64,000 nt of DNA from Escherichia coli (GCF_013122565.1 NZ_CP053258.1), one strand, 5' to 3'; shown: positions 55,424-64,000, counted from the stretch's first letter. Notes: generated by a model from the sequence alone, not told the origin. Numbers and translations are program-made.

Positions 55424-57424
55424 TCATCCTTTTTGCTGAAGCATGGGGAATAATTGTTCGCACAGCAAAACACCGTTATTCATTGCTTCTACCCGTGCCT
55501 CGCTTTCTGTATTACGAAATTGTCCCAACACATGTGCCAGCCGATAAAAAACCACCGCGGTGAGGTCATTCGCCAGCAACTCTGCCTGACCAATAGCACT
55601 CTGTTCCTGATAGCGCCAGCCGTTATGGAGCAGTTGAATAAGTAACGCCTGGCAGCGCATCAGCAACTGATGAGCAGTAGACGGCACAGGCAGAACGCTG
55701 GCAGAAGGTAGCGGTGCCACAGGCGCAGTTTCTGCGTCCAGCGCCCAGGCGCGGGTTTTTGTCATCATTACCCGTGGTTCCAGTGTCAATTGCCCATCAA
55801 CAAAACTGACAAAGCCAGAAACCAGACACACGGGGTCCTCTGTTTGTTGCAAAAGCGCCGCCATGCGTTCAACGGCATAAGGCGCGCTGGCTGAGGCTGG
55901 TAGGGATAACGTCAGCACATTATCTTCCCCTTCGCCGCTAATGACCTGCGCATCCAGTGTCTGGCGGCTGCTATCCCAACCAAGCGAAATACACTCCGCT
56001 ACCGGCAGAATAAATAAGTTATCGACCTGGTTGAGTGGTCGTATGCAGGCGGGGGGACGCTGGCGTAAATATTCCCGCAAAGCCACAATGCCCGGCTGGC
56101 GCAACGGCGCGCTCAACATTTGCCAGGCGTCTGGCGACAACGGCACAACGCTGCTTAAGCGGTTGCGGGTAGCTAACAGCAGCTCGCCATCGGCACTGCG
56201 TTTTGCTGCTTGTGAAACAATTTGCCCACCTGCCAGTGCGCCAGCCTGAAAACTAAACAGCCGACGTTTTGCCGCGGGAGCGTTTTCTTGTTCGCTTCTC
56301 GGCCAACTACGCGAAAGATGCAAAATACTGCCGGTGTCGGGATCGGTGAACCAGATGCGTAAACCATACTGCTCAATATCCTGCCAGCAACGCATACCTA
56401 AAGACACCAGCCGCAGATGATCAAGCTTTGCTTCTCCGGCAATGCCAGCGCCAACGACCGTGCGCCACGGCACAGGAGGAACTTCACCGATACTGTCGCG
56501 CCGGGCCATCTCTTGTGCGCAATTTAATCGACTGTTTAATGCCGCAAGCTGACGTAAGCATTCTCCGGCATGATAGTGGCTGGCGCGGGCGTGGAAGGCA
56601 TCAACGCTGGCGCGCAGTTGCCGTAGCGATTCACTCACCCATCGCCAGTTGCAGCGTTCCGCCGCCTGCTGTGCGCGGCTGAAAGCGGCCTCGTAATGGA
56701 TTGGCGGCTGGCTGATGCCGCCCAGCCATAATGCCTGACTTAATTGCTGAACATATTGACGACACGCGTTGCCCTCTTCGCTGGCAAACGGATCGTCAGA
56801 TGATGTGACGTGTTCGCTGCGCATCTGCCAGATTAAATGAGTAAATTCCGCTTGCTGAGTTTTTGCCTCGACGAAGGCCTGCACAGCCAGTACGACATGT
56901 TCGCAAAGTGTGCCGTCAATACAATCACAACGGGCGAAACGAATACTGCTGCGGGAATAAAAACGCACATCGCTCATCGGTAAGCGGGCAGAGGGAATTT
57001 CGCCCGGCGTACAGAACAACTCAATGGTGATGCCTTTAGCGACCAACGCCTGTGCGCGTTTGCGGGTGGCATCGGGAAGGGTAGCCAGTTCTTCCAGCCA
57101 GATTGCCGGATCCCACTCTTCTTCTTTTTCCGTGGGCTGAACGGTGGCACAAAGTCGTTGATAACTTAACACCAGCATAACGCGATGACGGCACATGCCG
57201 CTGGCCCCGCAGGTGCACTGAGCCTCTTTCAGTGCCTGACCGTTCGCCAGCTGGGTACGGACACCGTCACTGAAGGTGGCGATTAAAGCGCCGTTCTCAT
57301 GGCTGATTTCCGGGACGTTGCCATTTTCCAGTTCCTTAAGGCTGCGCTTAACAAAACCGGCATTGCTTAACGCCGTCAGTGCCTGCGGTGTCAGTTCTAA
57401 TAATTCCGGGCGTAGTGAATTCAT
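55424..57424 (-). CDS. yehQ: SWIM zinc-finger protein YehQ
   Basis: ORF-track 55424..57448; start placed at the ATG at 57424, which forms an ATGA overlap with the yehP stop; contains CxC...CxH SWIM-type motifs (CTCGASGMCRHRV; CDCIDGTLCEHVV). Confidence 0.8.
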   Translation of the reverse strand: MNSLRPELLELTPQALTALSNAGFVKRSLKELENGNVPEISHENGALIATFSDGVRTQLANGQALKEAQCTCGASGMCRHRVMLVLSYQRLCATVQPTEKEEEWDPAIWLEELATLPDATRKRAQALVAKGITIELFCTPGEIPSARLPMSDVRFYSRSSIRFARCDCIDGTLCEHVVLAVQAFVEAKTQQAEFTHLIWQMRSEHVTSSDDPFASEEGNACRQYVQQLSQALWLGGISQPPIHYEAAFSRAQQAAERCNWRWVSESLRQLRASVDAFHARASHYHAGECLRQLAALNSRLNCAQEMARRDSIGEVPPVPWRTVVGAGIAGEAKLDHLRLVSLGMRCWQDIEQYGLRIWFTDPDTGSILHLSRSWPRSEQENAPAAKRRLFSFQAGALAGGQIVSQAAKRSADGELLLATRNRLSSVVPLSPDAWQMLSAPLRQPGIVALREYLRQRPPACIRPLNQVDNLFILPVAECISLGWDSSRQTLDAQVISGEGEDNVLTLSLPASASAPYAVERMAALLQQTEDPVCLVSGFVSFVDGQLTLEPRVMMTKTRAWALDAETAPVAPLPSASVLPVPSTAHQLLMRCQALLIQLLHNGWRYQEQSAIGQAELLANDLTAVVFYRLAHVLGQFRNTESEARVEAMNNGVLLCEQLFPMLQQKG

Positions 57425-58557
57425 GACTGAAGATTCTCCGCAAGCCATGATGCCAGCTCGCCCGGTGTCATGGCGGCTATTTGTGCGCCGATATTAACCA
57501 GCGCCTGGGCCGTATCGTGGTCATAGCAGGGTGTTGCGTTGCTATCGAGCGCCGCCAGTCCCAGCACTTTGATGCCGCTCTGGACACACTTTTTCACCTG
57601 ATGCGTCAGCAATGATGATGAACCCCCTTCGTAAAAATCGCTCACGAGGATAATGACGCTTTTTGCTGGTTGTTCAATAAGTTGCCGACCATACTCCACG
57701 GCACTGGCGATATTGGTCCCGCCACCCAACTGTACTTTCATTAATAACTCTACCGGATCGGCAACGTCTGCCGTGAGATCAACGACGCTTGTGTCAAACG
57801 CCACCAGATGGGTACGAATGCCGGGTAACTGCCACAAACAGGCCGCCATCACCGCAGAGTGGATCACCGAATCGACCATCGAGCCGCTTTGATCAACCAG
57901 TAAGACCAGTTGCCATTGTTCGCTTTGGCGTTTAATGCGGCTGTTAAAGCGGGGGGATTCGATATACAACTTGCCGTGTTGCGGGTGCCAGTGTTGCAGG
58001 TTGGCGCGCAGAGTACTTTTGAAATCAAAGTTTCGCGCCAGTGGAATAAATGAGCGGCGACGGCGATCGCGGACACCAGAAAAAGCCTGACGAACCTCCT
58101 TTGCCAGTTGTGCCATAATTTCTTCCACAACCTGGCGCACTATCCGGCGGGCGGCAGCCAGTACTTCGGGATTCATCAGATGTTTGGTGTGCAAAACGGC
58201 GCGTAGCAGGCTTTCAGAAGGCTGCATACGTTCCAGCACGTCGAGATTTGTCACCACATCTTCAATGCCGTAGCGCAGTACGGCATCGCTTTCCAGCCGC
58301 TCAATCACCTGTTGCGGAAACAGCGTGTGAATACTGTTGATCCACTCAGGAGTGGTGAGATTTGAGCCACCTAATCCACCGGAGCGTTCACCACGCTGGA
58401 GCCGTTCAGGATCGCGCCCATACAGCCACTCCAGCGCGTGGTCTATCTGCCGGGCGTTGTCATCCAGCCCACAAAGCGTCGTTTCTGCCGCTTCGCCAAG
58501 AATTAATCGCCAGCGTTGTAGTTCACGGGTGGTCAGAAGATCGTTCAGTTCAGACAT
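57421..58557 (-). CDS. yehP: von Willebrand factor A (VWA) domain protein YehP
   Basis: ORF-track 57421..58785; internal ATG at 58557 gives 378-aa MSELNDLLTTRELQRW...; MIDAS motif LVLLVDQSGSM. Confidence 0.88.
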   Translation of the reverse strand: MSELNDLLTTRELQRWRLILGEAAETTLCGLDDNARQIDHALEWLYGRDPERLQRGERSGGLGGSNLTTPEWINSIHTLFPQQVIERLESDAVLRYGIEDVVTNLDVLERMQPSESLLRAVLHTKHLMNPEVLAAARRIVRQVVEEIMAQLAKEVRQAFSGVRDRRRRSFIPLARNFDFKSTLRANLQHWHPQHGKLYIESPRFNSRIKRQSEQWQLVLLVDQSGSMVDSVIHSAVMAACLWQLPGIRTHLVAFDTSVVDLTADVADPVELLMKVQLGGGTNIASAVEYGRQLIEQPAKSVIILVSDFYEGGSSSLLTHQVKKCVQSGIKVLGLAALDSNATPCYDHDTAQALVNIGAQIAAMTPGELASWLAENLQS

Positions 58558-60829
58558 GGAAAACTCCCCAGTGTTGCAGCGATGCCAGTGCCTGCTGTTC
58601 GAGTTGTTGATGATGTGCAATGGCTTGTGGTGGACAATGCAACGGCATTTGCAGAGCCGAAACGGGAAGTTGCGCCAGTTGATAATGTTCAAGCACCTGA
58701 TGCGCCAGCGTCCCGCGTTCTCGTGGCGGTAGCCAGGCCATCGCCGCGCGTAAATCGGGCAGGGCATTGATAAAATCGGCATCACTTAGTTGATTTAAAT
58801 GACTGCTGAAACCGGCGATAAATGCCGGCTGACAAGCCAGTTGATGACGGGCTAATGCCAGCAAACCGTGCAGCGCCTCGCCGGATTGGGCCGGGGATAA
58901 CTGCGTCAGCATTGTCAGCGCCGCTTCGGCACTAGCGTTGGGATGTTCCAGACGCATCAGTGCGCCAAGAGTCGCGCCGCGATCCAGCGCCGGGGCATGA
59001 ATCGCCTGACTGCGGCGCTCCAGTAAGGCTACCGCCGCAGAAAGCGAAACGCCGGATAAGTTAACGCCGCTATGTAGATCGCGCAGGATATGGCAAAGCG
59101 CTTGCCAGCTATGCAGGTGAGCGTGAAACTCCTTTTCATCCGGTCTGCCGTTGGATTCACACAGCCACAGCGTGCGATCGATAGCCGCGCATAACGTCGT
59201 TTGTAATATCTGCGCGCCTTGCATACCGCTAATTTCATCCAGCCGCCATAAGGCATATAGCACTTCCAGCGCCTGGCCCATTTCGGCAAATTGATTTTCC
59301 TGGGCGATTAATAATGTGAGTTGTTCCAGTAATTGCTCACTAAAGCTCGCCAGGCCCGCTAACGCCGCCTGGCTAAGACATGCGGTAATGCTGCCGATTC
59401 CACCCGCGTCCAGCATATCGGCTTCTAATTTATTGCGTGCGGCTTCCTGGAGTGTTGCACCAAAGCAGGCGGCCTCAATCAATGCCGCATGCTGGCTAAG
59501 CGGGCGGGTTAATTTCCAGCGTTCTTCACCGTTGCCTGCAAGTGTCAGTGTACTTCCCTGCTGGCGTACAATCCCTGGGATCTCCAGTATTGCCAGCCGA
59601 TGTAACACCTGACTTTGCGCTAGTCCATTGGGGTTAAAGCGATTTAAGGTAAGCTGCGCCGGAAGAGAGATTCCGGTACGTTCCAGTTCGCAGGTGACAT
59701 CTTTTGGCAGAGGCGGTTGTGGCGTGGAGGGGGCAAGTTTACCGAATCCGTCACCCGCTAATGTGTCTATCAACGTTAGCAGAATCGGATCGGTATCGGG
59801 ATGAATAACTCCGCGATAGCTCCACGGCAACGGCGCGTTCAAGGCTTCTTTAATCAGCGAGCCTGCTATGGCATCCAGCCAGTCAGTGCGTAACGGTAGT
59901 GTATGACCGCGCAACTGTGCCAGCGCCATCACATGCAGATGAGCGGCAGCCATATCAGCGGTAGAAGCGGGCAATTTGTGCTGGCGCAAACGGGCAAGGA
60001 TAGTTTTTAGCAGTTGTTCACCGGCCTGCTGTAAGCCCCACTGCCAGCACCAGTTTTGCCAGACCGGGGCAGGCATACCGGAAAGGTATCCAGCCAGCAC
60101 ATCAAGGCGCTTTTCACTGTAGGGGGTGAGATAACAACCTGTAACGGCATCTGCCAGCGACGGCAATTCTGGCGTGTTAATTTCCTGCGGACATTCGCGC
60201 CACATTTTTGCCAGTGCCGGAGCGTGCCAGCCACCGCAGACAACTAACACGTCGCCATTATTTTGCTGCATCGCCCATCCAATCCAGCGGGCCATAAAGG
60301 CTTCGCGCTGACGATTGAGTGCATCGCCGAGGAAATCGCCCCGCAGTTGGGCAAAATAGTGCGCCAGTGCAGAGGGTAATGCAGTTCGCTGGCTTTCATC
60401 TTCGAACAAGTGATCCCACAGGGTATCGCTGTTATCCATGCGGGTGGCACGCAGCAGCAAGGTCTGGCTTTCCTCTTGCGTATCAGGCGAATCGTCCTCT
60501 TCTTCACTCTGTGCCCAGCAAGGCAAATCGATGAAGTAAGTTTGTGCCTGAATACGACGAGCGGCTTGTAGCGCCTGCCACTCCGGCGAAAATTCAGCAA
60601 ATGGCGTCCAGGCACCACGCCCGGGGGCTGCACCGTCCTGATACTGGCAATAACTGTAAATAGCTACCGGAAGCTGGTGGGCTAAAAACAGTTCGTCTAC
60701 CCGGTCATTAAAATCAGCCGGGCCTTCAATCAACACGTATCGTGGCCGCTGGCTTTCGATTAACGATTTCACCAGCCGGGCGCAGGCCGGACTATGATGC
60801 CGGATGCCGACAATTAACAGCTCGCTCAT
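58550..60829 (-). CDS. yehM: Large uncharacterised protein YehM
   Basis: ORF-track 58550..60997; internal ATG at 60829 gives 759-aa MSELLIVGIRHHSPACARLV... Confidence 0.85.
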   Translation of the reverse strand: MSELLIVGIRHHSPACARLVKSLIESQRPRYVLIEGPADFNDRVDELFLAHQLPVAIYSYCQYQDGAAPGRGAWTPFAEFSPEWQALQAARRIQAQTYFIDLPCWAQSEEEDDSPDTQEESQTLLLRATRMDNSDTLWDHLFEDESQRTALPSALAHYFAQLRGDFLGDALNRQREAFMARWIGWAMQQNNGDVLVVCGGWHAPALAKMWRECPQEINTPELPSLADAVTGCYLTPYSEKRLDVLAGYLSGMPAPVWQNWCWQWGLQQAGEQLLKTILARLRQHKLPASTADMAAAHLHVMALAQLRGHTLPLRTDWLDAIAGSLIKEALNAPLPWSYRGVIHPDTDPILLTLIDTLAGDGFGKLAPSTPQPPLPKDVTCELERTGISLPAQLTLNRFNPNGLAQSQVLHRLAILEIPGIVRQQGSTLTLAGNGEERWKLTRPLSQHAALIEAACFGATLQEAARNKLEADMLDAGGIGSITACLSQAALAGLASFSEQLLEQLTLLIAQENQFAEMGQALEVLYALWRLDEISGMQGAQILQTTLCAAIDRTLWLCESNGRPDEKEFHAHLHSWQALCHILRDLHSGVNLSGVSLSAAVALLERRSQAIHAPALDRGATLGALMRLEHPNASAEAALTMLTQLSPAQSGEALHGLLALARHQLACQPAFIAGFSSHLNQLSDADFINALPDLRAAMAWLPPRERGTLAHQVLEHYQLAQLPVSALQMPLHCPPQAIAHHQQLEQQALASLQHWGVFHV

Positions 60830-60839
60830 GCATCTTTCC

Positions 60840-61928
60840 TCACGGCAGGCGGTGGCGGGCTTGATAATAAGCCTGCCAGTGAGCTTCTTTATGTGTGGCG
60901 ACTCGCTGTTCGAAGTAACGGCGCAGACGAGCGCGATCTTCTTCGTTATCTTTGACGATGGTTCCGGCAATACAGTCCACCAGATCGGCTGGCTCACCTG
61001 CGCGATTCGCTAAAAACCAGGCGCGGACGCCCACAGCGTGGGCCACGTTCACGGCTTCAGCGGTGGACATAATCGCTGTTAGTGTATCCATTGACGTTTT
61101 CTTTTCGCCGTTGGCACGCAGATCGCGGAAGGTGCGGACCAGTAACTCCAGTACCGCGTCAGGCACTTTATGCGGAATACCGCTATGGGCCAGCAAACGC
61201 GCCGAAGCACTGGCGACCAGTTCCAGCTCCTGAGCGAAATCCATAATCGGAAAGACAGTTTCAAAATCGAAGCGACGCTTTAGCGCAGCACTCATCTCAT
61301 TGACGCCGCGATCGCGCGTATTGGCAGTGGCAATAATATTAAAGCCTTCCCGCGCATAGAGTTGACTGGCTTCACCAGTGAGTTCCGGCACCGTCATCAC
61401 CCTGTCAGAAAGCATACCTAACAGACAGTCTTGCACTTCCAGCGGTGTACGCGTTATCTCTTCAAAACGGACGATTTTGCCGTCGCGCATTCCCTGGTAA
61501 AGCGGGGCAGGGACCAGCGCTTCCGTTGATGGACCATGATTGATAAGCAGAGCGTAGTTCCAGCCGTACTTGATTTGATCTTCAGTGGTAGATGCGCCGC
61601 CCTGGATGGTTAACCCGGCATCGCCGCTAATAGCGGTTGCCAGTAATTCAGACAGGAGAGATTTTGCGGTGCCCGGTTCCCCCACCAACATCAAACCGCG
61701 CCCGGTGGCAAGAGTGACTAACATACGTTCGACAGCAGAGGGACTAATCACGACTTTACGGCTAATATTTTGCGCGCTATCGCCAAGGATAAAAGCACGT
61801 GCCGCAGGCAAACTTAACTGCCAACCGGGCGGGCAAGGTGCGTTATCATTTTGTTTTAATTTTGCCAGTTCATCGGCGTATAACACAGCGGCAGGCGGAC
61901 GCTGCAGATGATTATTCTGCGGTGACAT
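60840..61928 (-). CDS. yehL: MoxR-like AAA+ ATPase YehL
   Basis: ORF-track 60840..61994; internal ATG at 61928 gives 362-aa MSPQNNHLQRPPAAVLYADEL...; Walker A GEPGTAKS. Confidence 0.88.
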   Translation of the reverse strand: MSPQNNHLQRPPAAVLYADELAKLKQNDNAPCPPGWQLSLPAARAFILGDSAQNISRKVVISPSAVERMLVTLATGRGLMLVGEPGTAKSLLSELLATAISGDAGLTIQGGASTTEDQIKYGWNYALLINHGPSTEALVPAPLYQGMRDGKIVRFEEITRTPLEVQDCLLGMLSDRVMTVPELTGEASQLYAREGFNIIATANTRDRGVNEMSAALKRRFDFETVFPIMDFAQELELVASASARLLAHSGIPHKVPDAVLELLVRTFRDLRANGEKKTSMDTLTAIMSTAEAVNVAHAVGVRAWFLANRAGEPADLVDCIAGTIVKDNEEDRARLRRYFEQRVATHKEAHWQAYYQARHRLP

Positions 61929-62037
61929 ATATTCATCCCTGAAATGTATTAATGAAATAAACGATATTTTACGCGCAATAAATGTTTGGTGCATTAGTTG
62001 TTTGAGCGAAAAATATCTGGAAAGCAGATCACAGTAA

Positions 62038-62120
62038 ATAAAAAAACCTGCTGGTGAGGCAGGTTCTTTTATTTACTACAGTGACGCTAACTTGCTGATT
62101 GTGCAACATTTCGTACCAAC
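62038..62120 (-). ncRNA. orzO: OrzO-like type I antitoxin sRNA (about 83 nt)
   Basis: Minus-strand promoter (-35 TTGCAA at 62150-55, 17-bp spacer, -10 TATAAT as reverse complement of 62127-32); 5' region complementary to the zorO 5' UTR; ends at hairpin aacctgc-tggtgag-gcaggtt (62045-62065) followed on the minus strand by TTTTTTT. Confidence 0.7.
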
Positions 62121-62126
62121 GAATAA

Positions 62127-62177
62127 ATTATAACCATATCCACACTCCATTGCAATTCAGTGAGTGAGATTTATAAT
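62127..62177. promoter_or_regulatory. Overlapping divergent promoters of orzO (-) and zorO (+) sharing one -35 hexamer
   Basis: Palindromic TTGCAA (62150-55) serves as -35 for +strand -10 TATAAT (62172-77, 16-bp spacer) and -strand -10 TATAAT (62127-32, 17-bp spacer). Confidence 0.65.
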
Positions 62178-62358
62178 CCTGCCCGTTGGGAGGTTGTGCC
62201 GGATCGGACCAATTTTAAGTCCTGGCTGCCGGACGGGTGGTGCCGCAGGCGGTGCCCTGATCCGGAGAGCAACGTTTCGTACCAACATACGTAAACCAGT
62301 ATCGACAGGCAGTGTAAGGGTAAGGTGCTGGTGTTGCGCTCCTTAATAAGGAGAGCGG

Positions 62359-62448
62359 ATGGACACGCTGACACAAAAGTTAACCGTGCTCATTGCCGTA
62401 CTGGAGTTATTAGTGGCTCTGTTACGGTTGATTGATTTGTTGAAGTAA
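62359..62448 (+). CDS. zorO: Type I toxin ZorO (29-aa hydrophobic peptide)
   Basis: Hand translation MDTLTQKLTVLIAVLELLVALLRLIDLLK*; strong SD aaggag 5 nt upstream; about 174-nt 5' UTR from the predicted TSS; matches my recollection of ZorO from E. coli O157:H7. Confidence 0.85.
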   Translation: MDTLTQKLTVLIAVLELLVALLRLIDLLK

Positions 62449-62469
62449 CGGGCAAATTGAAACGCATCT

Positions 62470-62496
62470 AAGGGGGAATACCGTTTCCCCCTTTAA
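62470..62496 (+). terminator. Terminator hairpin after zorO
   Basis: Stem aagggggaa / ttccccctt with 6-nt loop, short T tail. Confidence 0.55.
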
Positions 62497-62645
62497 TAAA
62501 ATGATTACATCTTCCATTAATTCACCCGATAACTTTTTTCATATTTATAAATTCATCGATTTTATAATCAACGTACTATTTGGCCGGGATGTGAATAATC
62601 ATGGTGGGCTATTGGCGAAAAATATCTGGAAAGTAGATCGCAGAA

Positions 62646-62729
62646 AATAAAAGAACCTGCTGGTGAGGCAGGTTCTTTTATTTACTACTTTGATGTTAAG
62701 TTACTGATAGTGCAACATGGCATCTCAAC
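62646..62729 (-). ncRNA. orzP: OrzP-like type I antitoxin sRNA
   Basis: Same architecture as orzO: -35 TTGCAA 62759-64, -10 reverse complement of 62736-41, hairpin 62654-62674 plus T-run on the minus strand. Confidence 0.65.
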
Positions 62730-62735
62730 GAACGA

Positions 62736-62786
62736 ATTATAACCACCTCGGGGCCGTGTTGCAATTAAGATAATGAGATTTATAAT
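62736..62786. promoter_or_regulatory. Overlapping divergent promoters of orzP (-) and zorP (+)
   Basis: Shared TTGCAA (62759-64); +strand TATAAT 62781-86; -strand TATAAT reverse complement of 62736-41. Confidence 0.6.
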
Positions 62787-62967
62787 CCTGACTGTTGGGA
62801 AGTTGCGCCGGATCGAACCCATTTCAAGTCCTGGCTACCGGACGGGTGGTGCCGCAGGTAGTGCTCTGATCCGGAGTGCAACATGGCGACTCAACATACG
62901 TAAACCAGTATCGACAGGCAGTGTAAGGGTAAGGTGCTGGTGTTGCGCTCCTTAATAAGGAGAGCGG

Positions 62968-63057
62968 ATGGACACGCTGACAAAAAAGTTAACCGTGCTC
63001 ATTGCCGTACTGGAGTTATTAGTGGCTCTGTTACGGTTGATTGATTTGTTGAAGTAA
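62968..63057 (+). CDS. zorP: Type I toxin ZorP (29 aa; one substitution, Q6K, relative to the upstream copy)
   Basis: Hand translation MDTLTKKLTVLIAVLELLVALLRLIDLLK*; identical SD and context to zorO. Confidence 0.85.
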   Translation: MDTLTKKLTVLIAVLELLVALLRLIDLLK

Positions 63058-63238: not shown

Positions 63239-63541
63239 TTATTCTATTTCTTGGTTGAATATATTCTGTAGTTCGCGATTAAAAATTGCTATTACCGTTT
63301 CAGGTGATTCACCTCGTAATTTCCGCTCATCAATACACTCATCTCTTATATAAATCAACGCATCATTTATTTGCGGGTCGGCATCATTAAATGTTGGATG
63401 TAGCCGGAATCGCTCCAGCCGGTAGACGGAACCTGTAAATAATTCAGAGCATTTATGGATCTCAAGTCTGAAGGAAAACGGATCTTCAGGTACAGGGACC
63501 TCATAATCGTAAATAGCAACCAGCTCTTTTTGCACGATCAT
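63239..63541 (-). CDS. yehK: Small uncharacterised protein (YehK-like)
   Basis: 100-aa ORF MIVQKELVAIYDYEVPVPEDPF...; the position between yehI and yehL corresponds to yehK in K-12; identity by synteny only. Confidence 0.5.
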   Translation of the reverse strand: MIVQKELVAIYDYEVPVPEDPFSFRLEIHKCSELFTGSVYRLERFRLHPTFNDADPQINDALIYIRDECIDERKLRGESPETVIAIFNRELQNIFNQEIE

Positions 63542-63600: not shown

Positions 63601-64000
63601 TTAATGGAAAATGACGTCGGGTGCGCTTAACGCCTCACTCAAATCAAACACATCAAGTTCGGCAAAAGTGACGGATTTATTGTCACGGTACACTCGAAGA
63701 GAACGGAAGCTCATTAACGCTTTGCTATCAACATTGTAGTGGTTAAAACCGGGTGAAAACTTAAGGACCAGCCGGTACTCGCCCAGGTCATAGACAAATG
63801 CATCCTCATAGCCTGACTCCCAGCCTTTGTATCGCATTCCCATAAGCTGCCCAACGGTAGCGGATTTACCTTCCCAGCGAGTCAGGCTGTTACTGGTTGA
63901 CTCGTCAGGTGTGAGCAGCACCGTGCGGCGCGACAACTGGCGAAAAGGCGGCATAATTTCGTAATCGGCAAAAAGCTGTGCAAATTCACTGCGCATTTCT
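63601..64000 (-). CDS. yehI: 3' end of a large ORF continuing beyond the window (likely YehI, DUF4132 family)
   Basis: Open frame on the minus strand from the window edge down to the stop at 63601 (...FDLSEALSAPDVIFH*); assignment by synteny with K-12 yehI-yehK-yehL. Confidence 0.5.
   Translation of the reverse strand, partial: EMRSEFAQLFADYEIMPPFRQLSRRTVLLTPDESTSNSLTRWEGKSATVGQLMGMRYKGWESGYEDAFVYDLGEYRLVLKFSPGFNHYNVDSKALMSFRSLRVYRDNKSVTFAELDVFDLSEALSAPDVIFH

Follow-up and report, generated by a model that had tools for sequence, protein, structure and literature searches.

What does a MoxR-type ATPase do in the company of three proteins that have no assigned role? The question is raised by yehLMPQ, four consecutive minus-strand genes at positions 55424-61928 of a 64,000-nucleotide stretch of Escherichia coli DNA (GCF_013122565.1, NZ_CP053258.1), which we refer to as the window. 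A model that read the window from its sequence alone (the original prediction) described the genes as a tightly coupled module without an assigned function, and the searchable literature indeed names none for the operon. The genes themselves, their lack of a function and the MoxR-VWA pairing of the YehL subfamily are already known. Not found described in searchable papers were the WGR-DUF4132 five-gene unit, the TIKI domain of YehM, the tandem OB fold of YehQ and a double lesion in strain K-12. Here we report that yehLMPQ makes up four-fifths, the downstream part, of a conserved system of five components, the remaining one being a DUF4132 protein, and we tentatively suggest what such a system could do.

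A five-component system conserved across phyla

The operon is as compact as had been predicted. On the minus strand of the window, open reading frames (ORFs) were confirmed for yehL (60840-61928, 362 residues), yehM (58550-60829, 759 residues), yehP (57421-58557, 378 residues) and yehQ (55424-57424, 666 residues), and RefSeq makes four identical gene calls of equal lengths in other E. coli. Reading the junctions on the sequence, the TGA stop of yehL is followed by a 10-nt spacer, GGAAAGATGC, and the yehM ATG; yehM and yehP overlap by 8 nt (ATGTCTGA); and yehP and yehQ share an ATGA overlap.

To define the conserved neighborhood, we collected the YehM family, which comprises 2246 clusters at 50% identity (E <= 1e-3) in several phyla. 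With each species represented by a single genome, a locus scan confirmed at least 561 loci, and 80 of these were kept, from Gamma- and Betaproteobacteria, Myxococcota and Actinomycetota. Together with the window and E. coli CT02 they make up the 82 sequences counted below, in which ORFs were called and searched with hidden Markov models (HMMs) iterated from the E. coli proteins. Beside YehM, a homologue of YehL was found in 81 sequences, of YehP (the VWA partner, encoded two genes downstream of yehL) in 80 and of YehQ in 79. The proposal of a co-conserved MoxR-AAA+/VWA/SWIM module thus holds across phyla, and the same comparison revealed that the module was incomplete, with a DUF4132 protein resembling YehI and MolR encoded in 74 of the 82. 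These proteins are 1100-1450 residues long, occur in one to three copies per locus, and are encoded upstream on the same strand; a WGR domain forms the N-terminus in approximately 60% of these long ORFs. The usual order, DUF4132(xN)-L-M-P-Q on one strand, is kept nearly without exception among the loci and recurs in Gamma-, Beta- and Alphaproteobacteria, Myxococcota and Actinomycetota. The coupling of the yeh genes is far beyond chance. No further co-conserved family was found at the 80 loci, where the only other multi-taxon clusters were generic ABC ATPases and spurious MFS-like or low-complexity matches.

Individual loci illustrate both the integrity of the unit and its variants. A conjugative Sinorhizobium plasmid encodes the AAA, DUF5682, DUF4132 (with WGR), VWA and SWIM proteins with overlapping junctions, and since the order there is L-M-DUF4132-P-Q, the DUF4132 gene lies inside the operon. 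Proteus mirabilis retains all five genes with a YehM that is only 28% identical, and a distant Rhizobium variant has a 460-residue SWIM protein, YehL, YehM and YehP, with the DUF4132 protein not detected. YehM and YehP are fused into proteins of approximately 1170-1180 residues in unrelated organisms (P0231, P0264 and P0266, from metagenomes). Separately, YehP-YehQ fusions are predicted in some E. coli (P0006, P0069, P0070), and an indel at the ATGA junction may be their cause.

E. coli encodes two DUF4132 proteins, MolR (1264 residues, with an N-terminal WGR domain) and YehI (1210 residues), both upstream of yehK; their Pfam DUF4132 matches have E values of 3e-50 and 5e-47. The order in CT02 is molR (1264 residues), yehI (1210 residues), a yehK-like gene and yehLMPQ. 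In the window only the 3′ end of yehI is present (63601-64000, minus strand), as the gene, 1210 codons in other E. coli, runs off the edge. The ORF at 63601-63996, which holds the last 131 yehI codons, matches the YehI/MolR (DUF4132-family) HMMs. The N-terminal profile of MolR matches the WGR domain of PARP3 (2eoc, E 1.2e-3), and K-12 YehF is annotated with PF05406; against NCBIfam, MolR and YehI gave no family except this WGR-like N-terminus of MolR. In alignment A4, MolR residues 690-1264 hold many invariant residues of charged or catalytic type (including D871, R875, D948, R949, K1018, D1019, R1030, E1032, H1053, D1083, H1107, D1125 and E1127), and residues 100-690 are poorly conserved.

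Within E. coli, 5202 of 5426 complete genomes covered at least 80% of a 7.4-kb query spanning the operon. The best identity among them was only 97.2%, which indicates that the window comes from a somewhat divergent Escherichia. Compared with K-12 and CT02, the ratio of nonsynonymous to synonymous substitution rates (dN/dS) is 0.03-0.20 for all four genes, and yehLMPQ is under purifying selection in Escherichia. The guanine-cytosine (GC) content is 54-56% across yehLMPQ (window 55500-61500) and 42-50% in the flanking intergenic and neighboring regions. This contrast would fit an ancient transfer from a donor richer in GC, but the operon is nevertheless silenced by H-NS.

Two groups of database matches were set aside. 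The single-origin PHROGs families phrog_30700, 33984, 31592, 29006, 20839, 36602 and 36295 match YehM, YehP, YehQ, YehI/MolR and YehK near-perfectly, with bit scores up to 1694, and look like host genes swept in by an over-extended prophage call rather than phage genes. Several PLSDB records (NZ_OL790696.1, NZ_CP134663.1, NZ_CP141089.1, NZ_OL790811.1 and others) are 4-4.9 Mb long, are evidently chromosomes, and inflate the plasmid count.

The YehL and YehP engine

The searchable literature mentions the MoxR gene solely as the type of the 'YehL subfamily', one of the seven into which MoxR ATPases are divided, and gives no role for it (PMC3893208). Its assignment as a MoxR-type AAA+ ATPase is confirmed by a Pfam AAA_5 match (E 2.6e-34) and by Walker A, Walker B, sensor and Arg motifs conserved at 100% among 80 orthologues: Walker A GEPGTAKS at residues 83-90, VRFEE at 153-157, TANTRD at 201-206 and KRRF at 217-220. 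The nearest solved sequence relatives are the AAA modules of midasin (E 3e-10), and dN/dS is 0.03-0.04. YehP is likewise the VWA protein that had been predicted, matching Pfam VWA_CoxE (E 5.8e-72) behind a conserved N-terminal domain of about 150 residues. Its metal ion-dependent adhesion site (MIDAS) is complete, with D222-x-S224-x-S226 (DQSGS, 222-226), T281 and D307 each at least 93% conserved in 78 orthologues.

These two proteins form an engine that is conserved far more strongly than the proteins accompanying it: E. coli and actinomycete sequences have a median identity of 64% for YehL and 58% for YehP, as against 38% for YehM, 38% for MolR and 33% for YehI (both of the latter over partial coverage) and 27% for YehQ.

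A predicted TIKI-type fold in YehM

The original prediction saw no obvious motif in YehM. This did not stand, as YehM matches Pfam DUF5682 (E 1e-96, with no other Pfam family reported) and has a recognizable fold. Sequence comparison alone goes little further: YehM had no match in NCBIfam, PADLOC or the PDB sequences, and for both YehM and YehQ single-sequence and profile searches of PDB sequences gave nothing meaningful. The AlphaFold2 model of YehM is confident, with a predicted local distance difference test (pLDDT) score of 93.3, and divides the protein into an N-domain (approximately residues 1-250), a middle domain and a C-terminal solenoid (approximately 460-759). The top PDB fold matches of the N-domain are TraB, ChaN, HopBA1, an Ere-like protein and EreC, all of the alpha/beta TIKI fold with its core of parallel beta-sheet, and the C-terminal half resembles the HEAT/ARM solenoids of symplekin, TAF6 and huntingtin. 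Some 100 further residues align to AAA+ proteins (BchI, dynein), a match to which we attach no interpretation.

Conservation is concentrated in the same N-domain. In a 91-sequence alignment (A1), most invariant residues fall within the first 202 and many are polar (R10, H11, E35, H51, E83, D101, R175 and H202). The catalytic set of the TIKI superfamily consists of two His and two Glu plus a conserved Arg, represented in RRSP by E3900, H3902, E3930, R4001 and H4030 (PMC6254334). YehM H11, E35, R175 and H202 occur in the same order as RRSP H3902, E3930, R4001 and H4030 and with similar spacing, 24 versus 28 residues from His to Glu and 27 versus 29 from Arg to His, and the model places them where strands end or helices start. 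YehM lacks the first Glu of the set, having R10 before H11. From the modeled fold and the order of these residues we infer that the N-domain is a TIKI/TraB-fold hydrolase, predicted to be a peptidase or esterase.

SWIM elements and a predicted tandem OB fold in YehQ

Two SWIM-like zinc fingers had been proposed for YehQ. Both CxC...CxH elements can be located, at residues 56-88 and 160-183, with weak Pfam SWIM matches (E 1.3e-3 and 0.12). The first is intact, as its ligands C70, C72, C78 and H80 are retained in 74 of 78 homologues; the second is degenerate in about half of the family, its Cys pair being retained in only 41 of 78. Structure prediction added a part that lies beyond the zinc fingers. 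In the model (pLDDT 93.0) the SWIM region is followed by a helical bundle, a beta-rich region at approximately 330-560 and a C-terminal helical bundle, and Foldseek matches the beta-rich region to the HIN domains of p202, AIM2 and MNDA, RPA70 DBD-A/B, Teb1 AB, LEF-3, CTC1 and POT1, consistent with a tandem OB fold.

Regulation and lesions in E. coli

In a K-12 hns/stpA mutant, yehL and yehM are de-repressed, and H-NS bound to the upstream intergenic region (PMC3686432). The region upstream of yehL in the window, 61929-62039 on the minus strand, is the expected site of the operon's own promoter; a simple scan found no consensus sigma-70 promoter in it. BglJ-RcsB activates the promoter of molR, on which H-NS exerts no repression (PMC3950696). 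Furthermore, a published list of LexA targets whose SOS box is known includes molR (PMC6590174), and in agreement with it K-12 has the SOS-box-like sequence CTGGATAAAATTACAG, whose end lies 10 nt before the molR/yehF ATG (L082 3450-3465). Depletion of DdrO in Deinococcus radiodurans strongly induces a DUF4132 gene and a WGR protein, as part of the radiation response regulon (PMC8533742). Two independent published links tie DUF4132/WGR genes to DNA-damage regulons. As a separate observation, five related Lentzea loci (L047, L055, L062, L066, L067) carry GAACGGTTGATC or GAACGGTTGGTC approximately 80 nt upstream of their WGR-DUF4132 genes, a single mismatch away from the LexA (Cheo) core of actinobacteria, GAAC-N4-GTTC; the site was seen in these loci only, and conservation within the genus may be the whole explanation.

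The system is damaged in several strains. In K-12 MG1655, codon 615 of yehQ (L082 16101-17945) is changed from GAG to TAG with loss of the last 52 residues, and molR (L082 3475-7270) is split into yehF, which holds the WGR part, and the pseudogene yehH. Given these two lesions, screens based on K-12 probably test a defective system. CT02, which among full-length matches lies nearest to the window, has an internal stop in yehM (L001 12551-14830), annotated there as a pseudogene, and in a sublineage of sequence type (ST) 131 the resistance transposon TnMB1860 is found in the DUF4132 region (PMC9334617).

The toxin-antitoxin neighbor and yehK

The operon had also been noted to lie immediately beside a toxin-antitoxin locus. 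This locus is real: the space between yehK and yehL is occupied at 62040-63057 by two zorO/orzO-like type I units in tandem, with Rfam OrzO-P antitoxin RNAs on the minus strand (62040-62113 and 62649-62722), ORFs for ZorO-like 29-residue toxins (MDTLTQKLTVLIAVLELLVALLRLIDLLK and MDTLTKKLTV...) on the plus strand (62359-62448 and 62968-63057), and divergent promoter-like sites at each unit. Its adjacency to yehL carries no meaning and is incidental, because K-12, with 306 nt between yehK and yehL, and all other taxa lack the insert; zor-orz is a strain-variable insertion. Between this insertion and yehI lies yehK, a small minus-strand ORF (63239-63541, 100 residues here). Among the 82 sequences its homologues occur only in those from Escherichia, and it is lineage-specific and probably no part of the core; among the loci, YehK, YehR and YehS do not occur beyond Escherichia and Klebsiella.

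Possible functions of the system

There are several possible explanations for what these five components do together. Our working hypothesis, held tentatively and with slightly less than even confidence, is that they form a MoxR/VWA remodeling machine by which a hydrolase is gated, its substrate being a protein or a nucleoprotein, with damaged or aberrant DNA-protein assemblies as the favored target. By analogy with the characterized CbbQ/CbbO, NorQ/NorD, RavA/ViaA and CobS/CobT pairs, a ring of YehL would use ATP, and the MIDAS of YehP would grip an acidic residue and so let YehL remodel a partner. The partners would be an assembly of YehM, YehQ and the DUF4132 protein, in which ATP-driven remodeling would gate or deliver the YehM hydrolase, and the substrate would be recognized by the WGR, SWIM and OB modules. 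Such modules are typical of the recognition of DNA ends, single-stranded DNA and nucleoprotein. It is their presence, together with a LexA-repressed molR, that leads us to favor a role on damaged or aberrant DNA-protein assemblies. The physical complex, the hydrolase activity, the DNA binding and the substrate would all be predictions of this hypothesis. A DNA-damage-linked, ATP-driven proteolytic 'segregase' can also be imagined, in which WGR, SWIM and OB modules would find breaks, gaps or single-stranded DNA, MoxR/VWA would extract or unfold a trapped protein and YehM would cut it. Such a machine would be a bacterial analogue, though no homologue, of the eukaryotic pathway in which p97/Cdc48 with SPRTN/Wss1 deals with DNA-protein crosslinks and stalled complexes; we consider it improbable.

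A number of observations weigh against a gated hydrolase acting on DNA-protein assemblies. The literature search found no experiment on any of these proteins. TIKI membership of YehM is argued from a modeled fold and the order of its motif residues, and hhalign of YehM against the E. coli TraB-family (PF01963) protein YbaP and against a YbaP profile was not significant (E 0.24 and 0.36), the profile being weak since its homologue search yielded only close relatives of low diversity. The real catalytic part could instead be the C-terminal half of the DUF4132 protein, judging from its sequence conservation. For the OB region of YehQ, Foldseek E values are marginal (1e-3 to 1e-1) though the probabilities are high. 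OB folds also mediate protein contacts, and with a median net charge of -1 the region cannot be called basic, so that DNA binding is only one possibility for it. The regulatory link is uneven as well, with no SOS control visibly shared across taxa: yehLMPQ has a separate H-NS-silenced promoter, apart from the control of molR; the LexA-box pattern is no commoner in the window than by chance; LexA-type boxes were found upstream of WGR-DUF4132 genes in 2 of 29 gamma- and betaproteobacterial cases, one of which is E. coli; and no clean Cheo box was found upstream of the actinomycete WGR-DUF4132 genes.

The same parts could instead be those of an anti-phage or anti-plasmid defense system, with the variable DUF4132, SWIM and OB proteins as sensors of foreign nucleic acid or of a phage protein, MoxR/VWA as an ATP-dependent switch and YehM as a TIKI effector. 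We regard this as a serious though rather unlikely alternative. It would fit the patchy spread over distant phyla with an engine that is 64% and 58% identical between E. coli and actinomycetes, a combination that suggests horizontal transfer, and it would fit the plasmid-borne copies. On one of these, the mobilizable 77-kb Iodobacter fluviatilis plasmid pl1, the five-gene array (L085 15092-18749) adjoins a type I restriction-modification system and insertion sequence (IS) elements, and the yehQ homologue is split into two ORFs. The one to three diverging DUF4132 paralogues per locus, the H-NS silencing of yehL and yehM, a GC content (55%) above the 45-50% of the flanks and the frequency of lesions (molR and the yehQ amber codon in K-12, the yehM stop in CT02, TnMB1860 in ST131) would likewise fit, and TIKI-fold effectors are known in the toxins RRSP and HopBA1. 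However, the four proteins match none of 5027 PADLOC models at E <= 0.01, no defense genes are co-conserved at the 80 loci, and genuine phage copies were not found, the phage collection giving one weak partial match. In E. coli the operon moreover belongs to the core genome (5202/5426), occupies a fixed site and is under purifying selection, unlike typical accessory defense islands. Lesions in some strains could also be taken to mean that the four genes are neighbors without a common function or a decaying remnant, and a genome-reduction paper on strain DGF-298 mentions all four, which may have been deleted there. This is extremely improbable given that order, strand and overlapping junctions are conserved across phyla, that fusion proteins exist, that dN/dS is 0.03-0.20 and that the catalytic motifs are invariant; the co-conservation data effectively refute it.

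MoxR/VWA proteins may alternatively serve here as a maturation chaperone, chelatase-like or CoxD/CoxE-like, that would assemble a client enzyme or supply it with a metal or cofactor; the client would be the His/Glu site of YehM or the DUF4132 protein, an unlikely reading in our view. An AAA_5 ATPase and a VWA protein next to a protein of more than 1200 residues parallel CobS/CobT/CobN and BchI/BchD/BchH, YehP falls in Pfam VWA_CoxE, and ChaN, a top structural match of YehM, binds haem. Moreover, TIKI itself is metal-dependent (PMC6254334), and most characterized MoxR systems are maturation factors (PMC3893208). NCBIfam offers weak matches of YehL to GvpN and MadB and of YehP to cobaltochelatase, but these score far under the curated cut-offs (GvpN 33 versus 267 bits, cobaltochelatase 18 versus 779). 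Nor is any metabolic enzyme, cofactor-synthesis gene or transporter co-conserved, and WGR, SWIM and OB modules with LexA control would be unexpected for a cofactor chaperone. Maturation might account for the old name of molR, 'molybdate metabolism regulator'; the link of molR to molybdate, however, found no support here, and Deinococcus molybdate genes did not co-vary (PMC8533742).

Significance and comparison with known systems

The set from molR to yehQ, seven genes including yehK and approximately 14 kb without the zor-orz insertion, is among the largest fully uncharacterized conserved gene sets of the E. coli core genome. Recognizing a five-component unit tells experimenters what to co-express, and testable activities can now be named for it: a predicted TIKI-type hydrolase whose catalytic residues can be named, the MIDAS adaptor, and the WGR, OB and SWIM recognition modules. 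The defective copy in K-12 also offers an explanation for why K-12 screens have revealed no function. If the link to DNA damage is true, the SOS response would gain a new type of machine; if the genes serve defense, a new family built on a MoxR/VWA switch would be added.

With RavA-ViaA, CbbQ-CbbO, NorQ-NorD, CoxD-CoxE and CobS-CobT, the system shares an AAA_5 MoxR ATPase encoded beside a VWA protein with a full MIDAS. It differs from them in that no client enzyme is encoded alongside yehLMPQ and in the Walker B motif of YehL, which is EE and not DE. To our knowledge, its three additional obligatory partners, DUF5682/YehM, SWIM-OB/YehQ and WGR-DUF4132, have not been described for any characterized MoxR system. 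The N-domain of YehM has the predicted fold of the TIKI, TraB, PrgY, ChaN and erythromycin-esterase proteins, with an invariant His...Glu...Arg...His set that follows the RRSP catalytic residues in order and approximate spacing, whereas its fusion to a 500-residue helical scaffold and its place in an operon with an AAA+ ATPase set it apart from that superfamily. Residues ~330-560 of YehQ superpose on the tandem OB modules of RPA70 DBD-A/B, the HIN domains of AIM2 and p202, Teb1 and POT1, although they share no sequence similarity with these DNA binders, are not basic, and are flanked by SWIM fingers and helical bundles. The N-terminus of MolR resembles the WGR domains of PARP1-3, but in place of a PARP catalytic domain it is followed by approximately 1200 further residues ending in DUF4132. 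By sequence, the solved protein nearest to the YehL AAA module is midasin (Rea1/Mdn1), in which AAA_5 modules are joined to a MIDAS/VWA domain that strips factors from a nucleoprotein particle. Midasin, however, is a single eukaryotic polypeptide of approximately 4700-4900 residues that acts on pre-60S ribosomes, whereas YehL and YehP, which have different partners, are separate small proteins.

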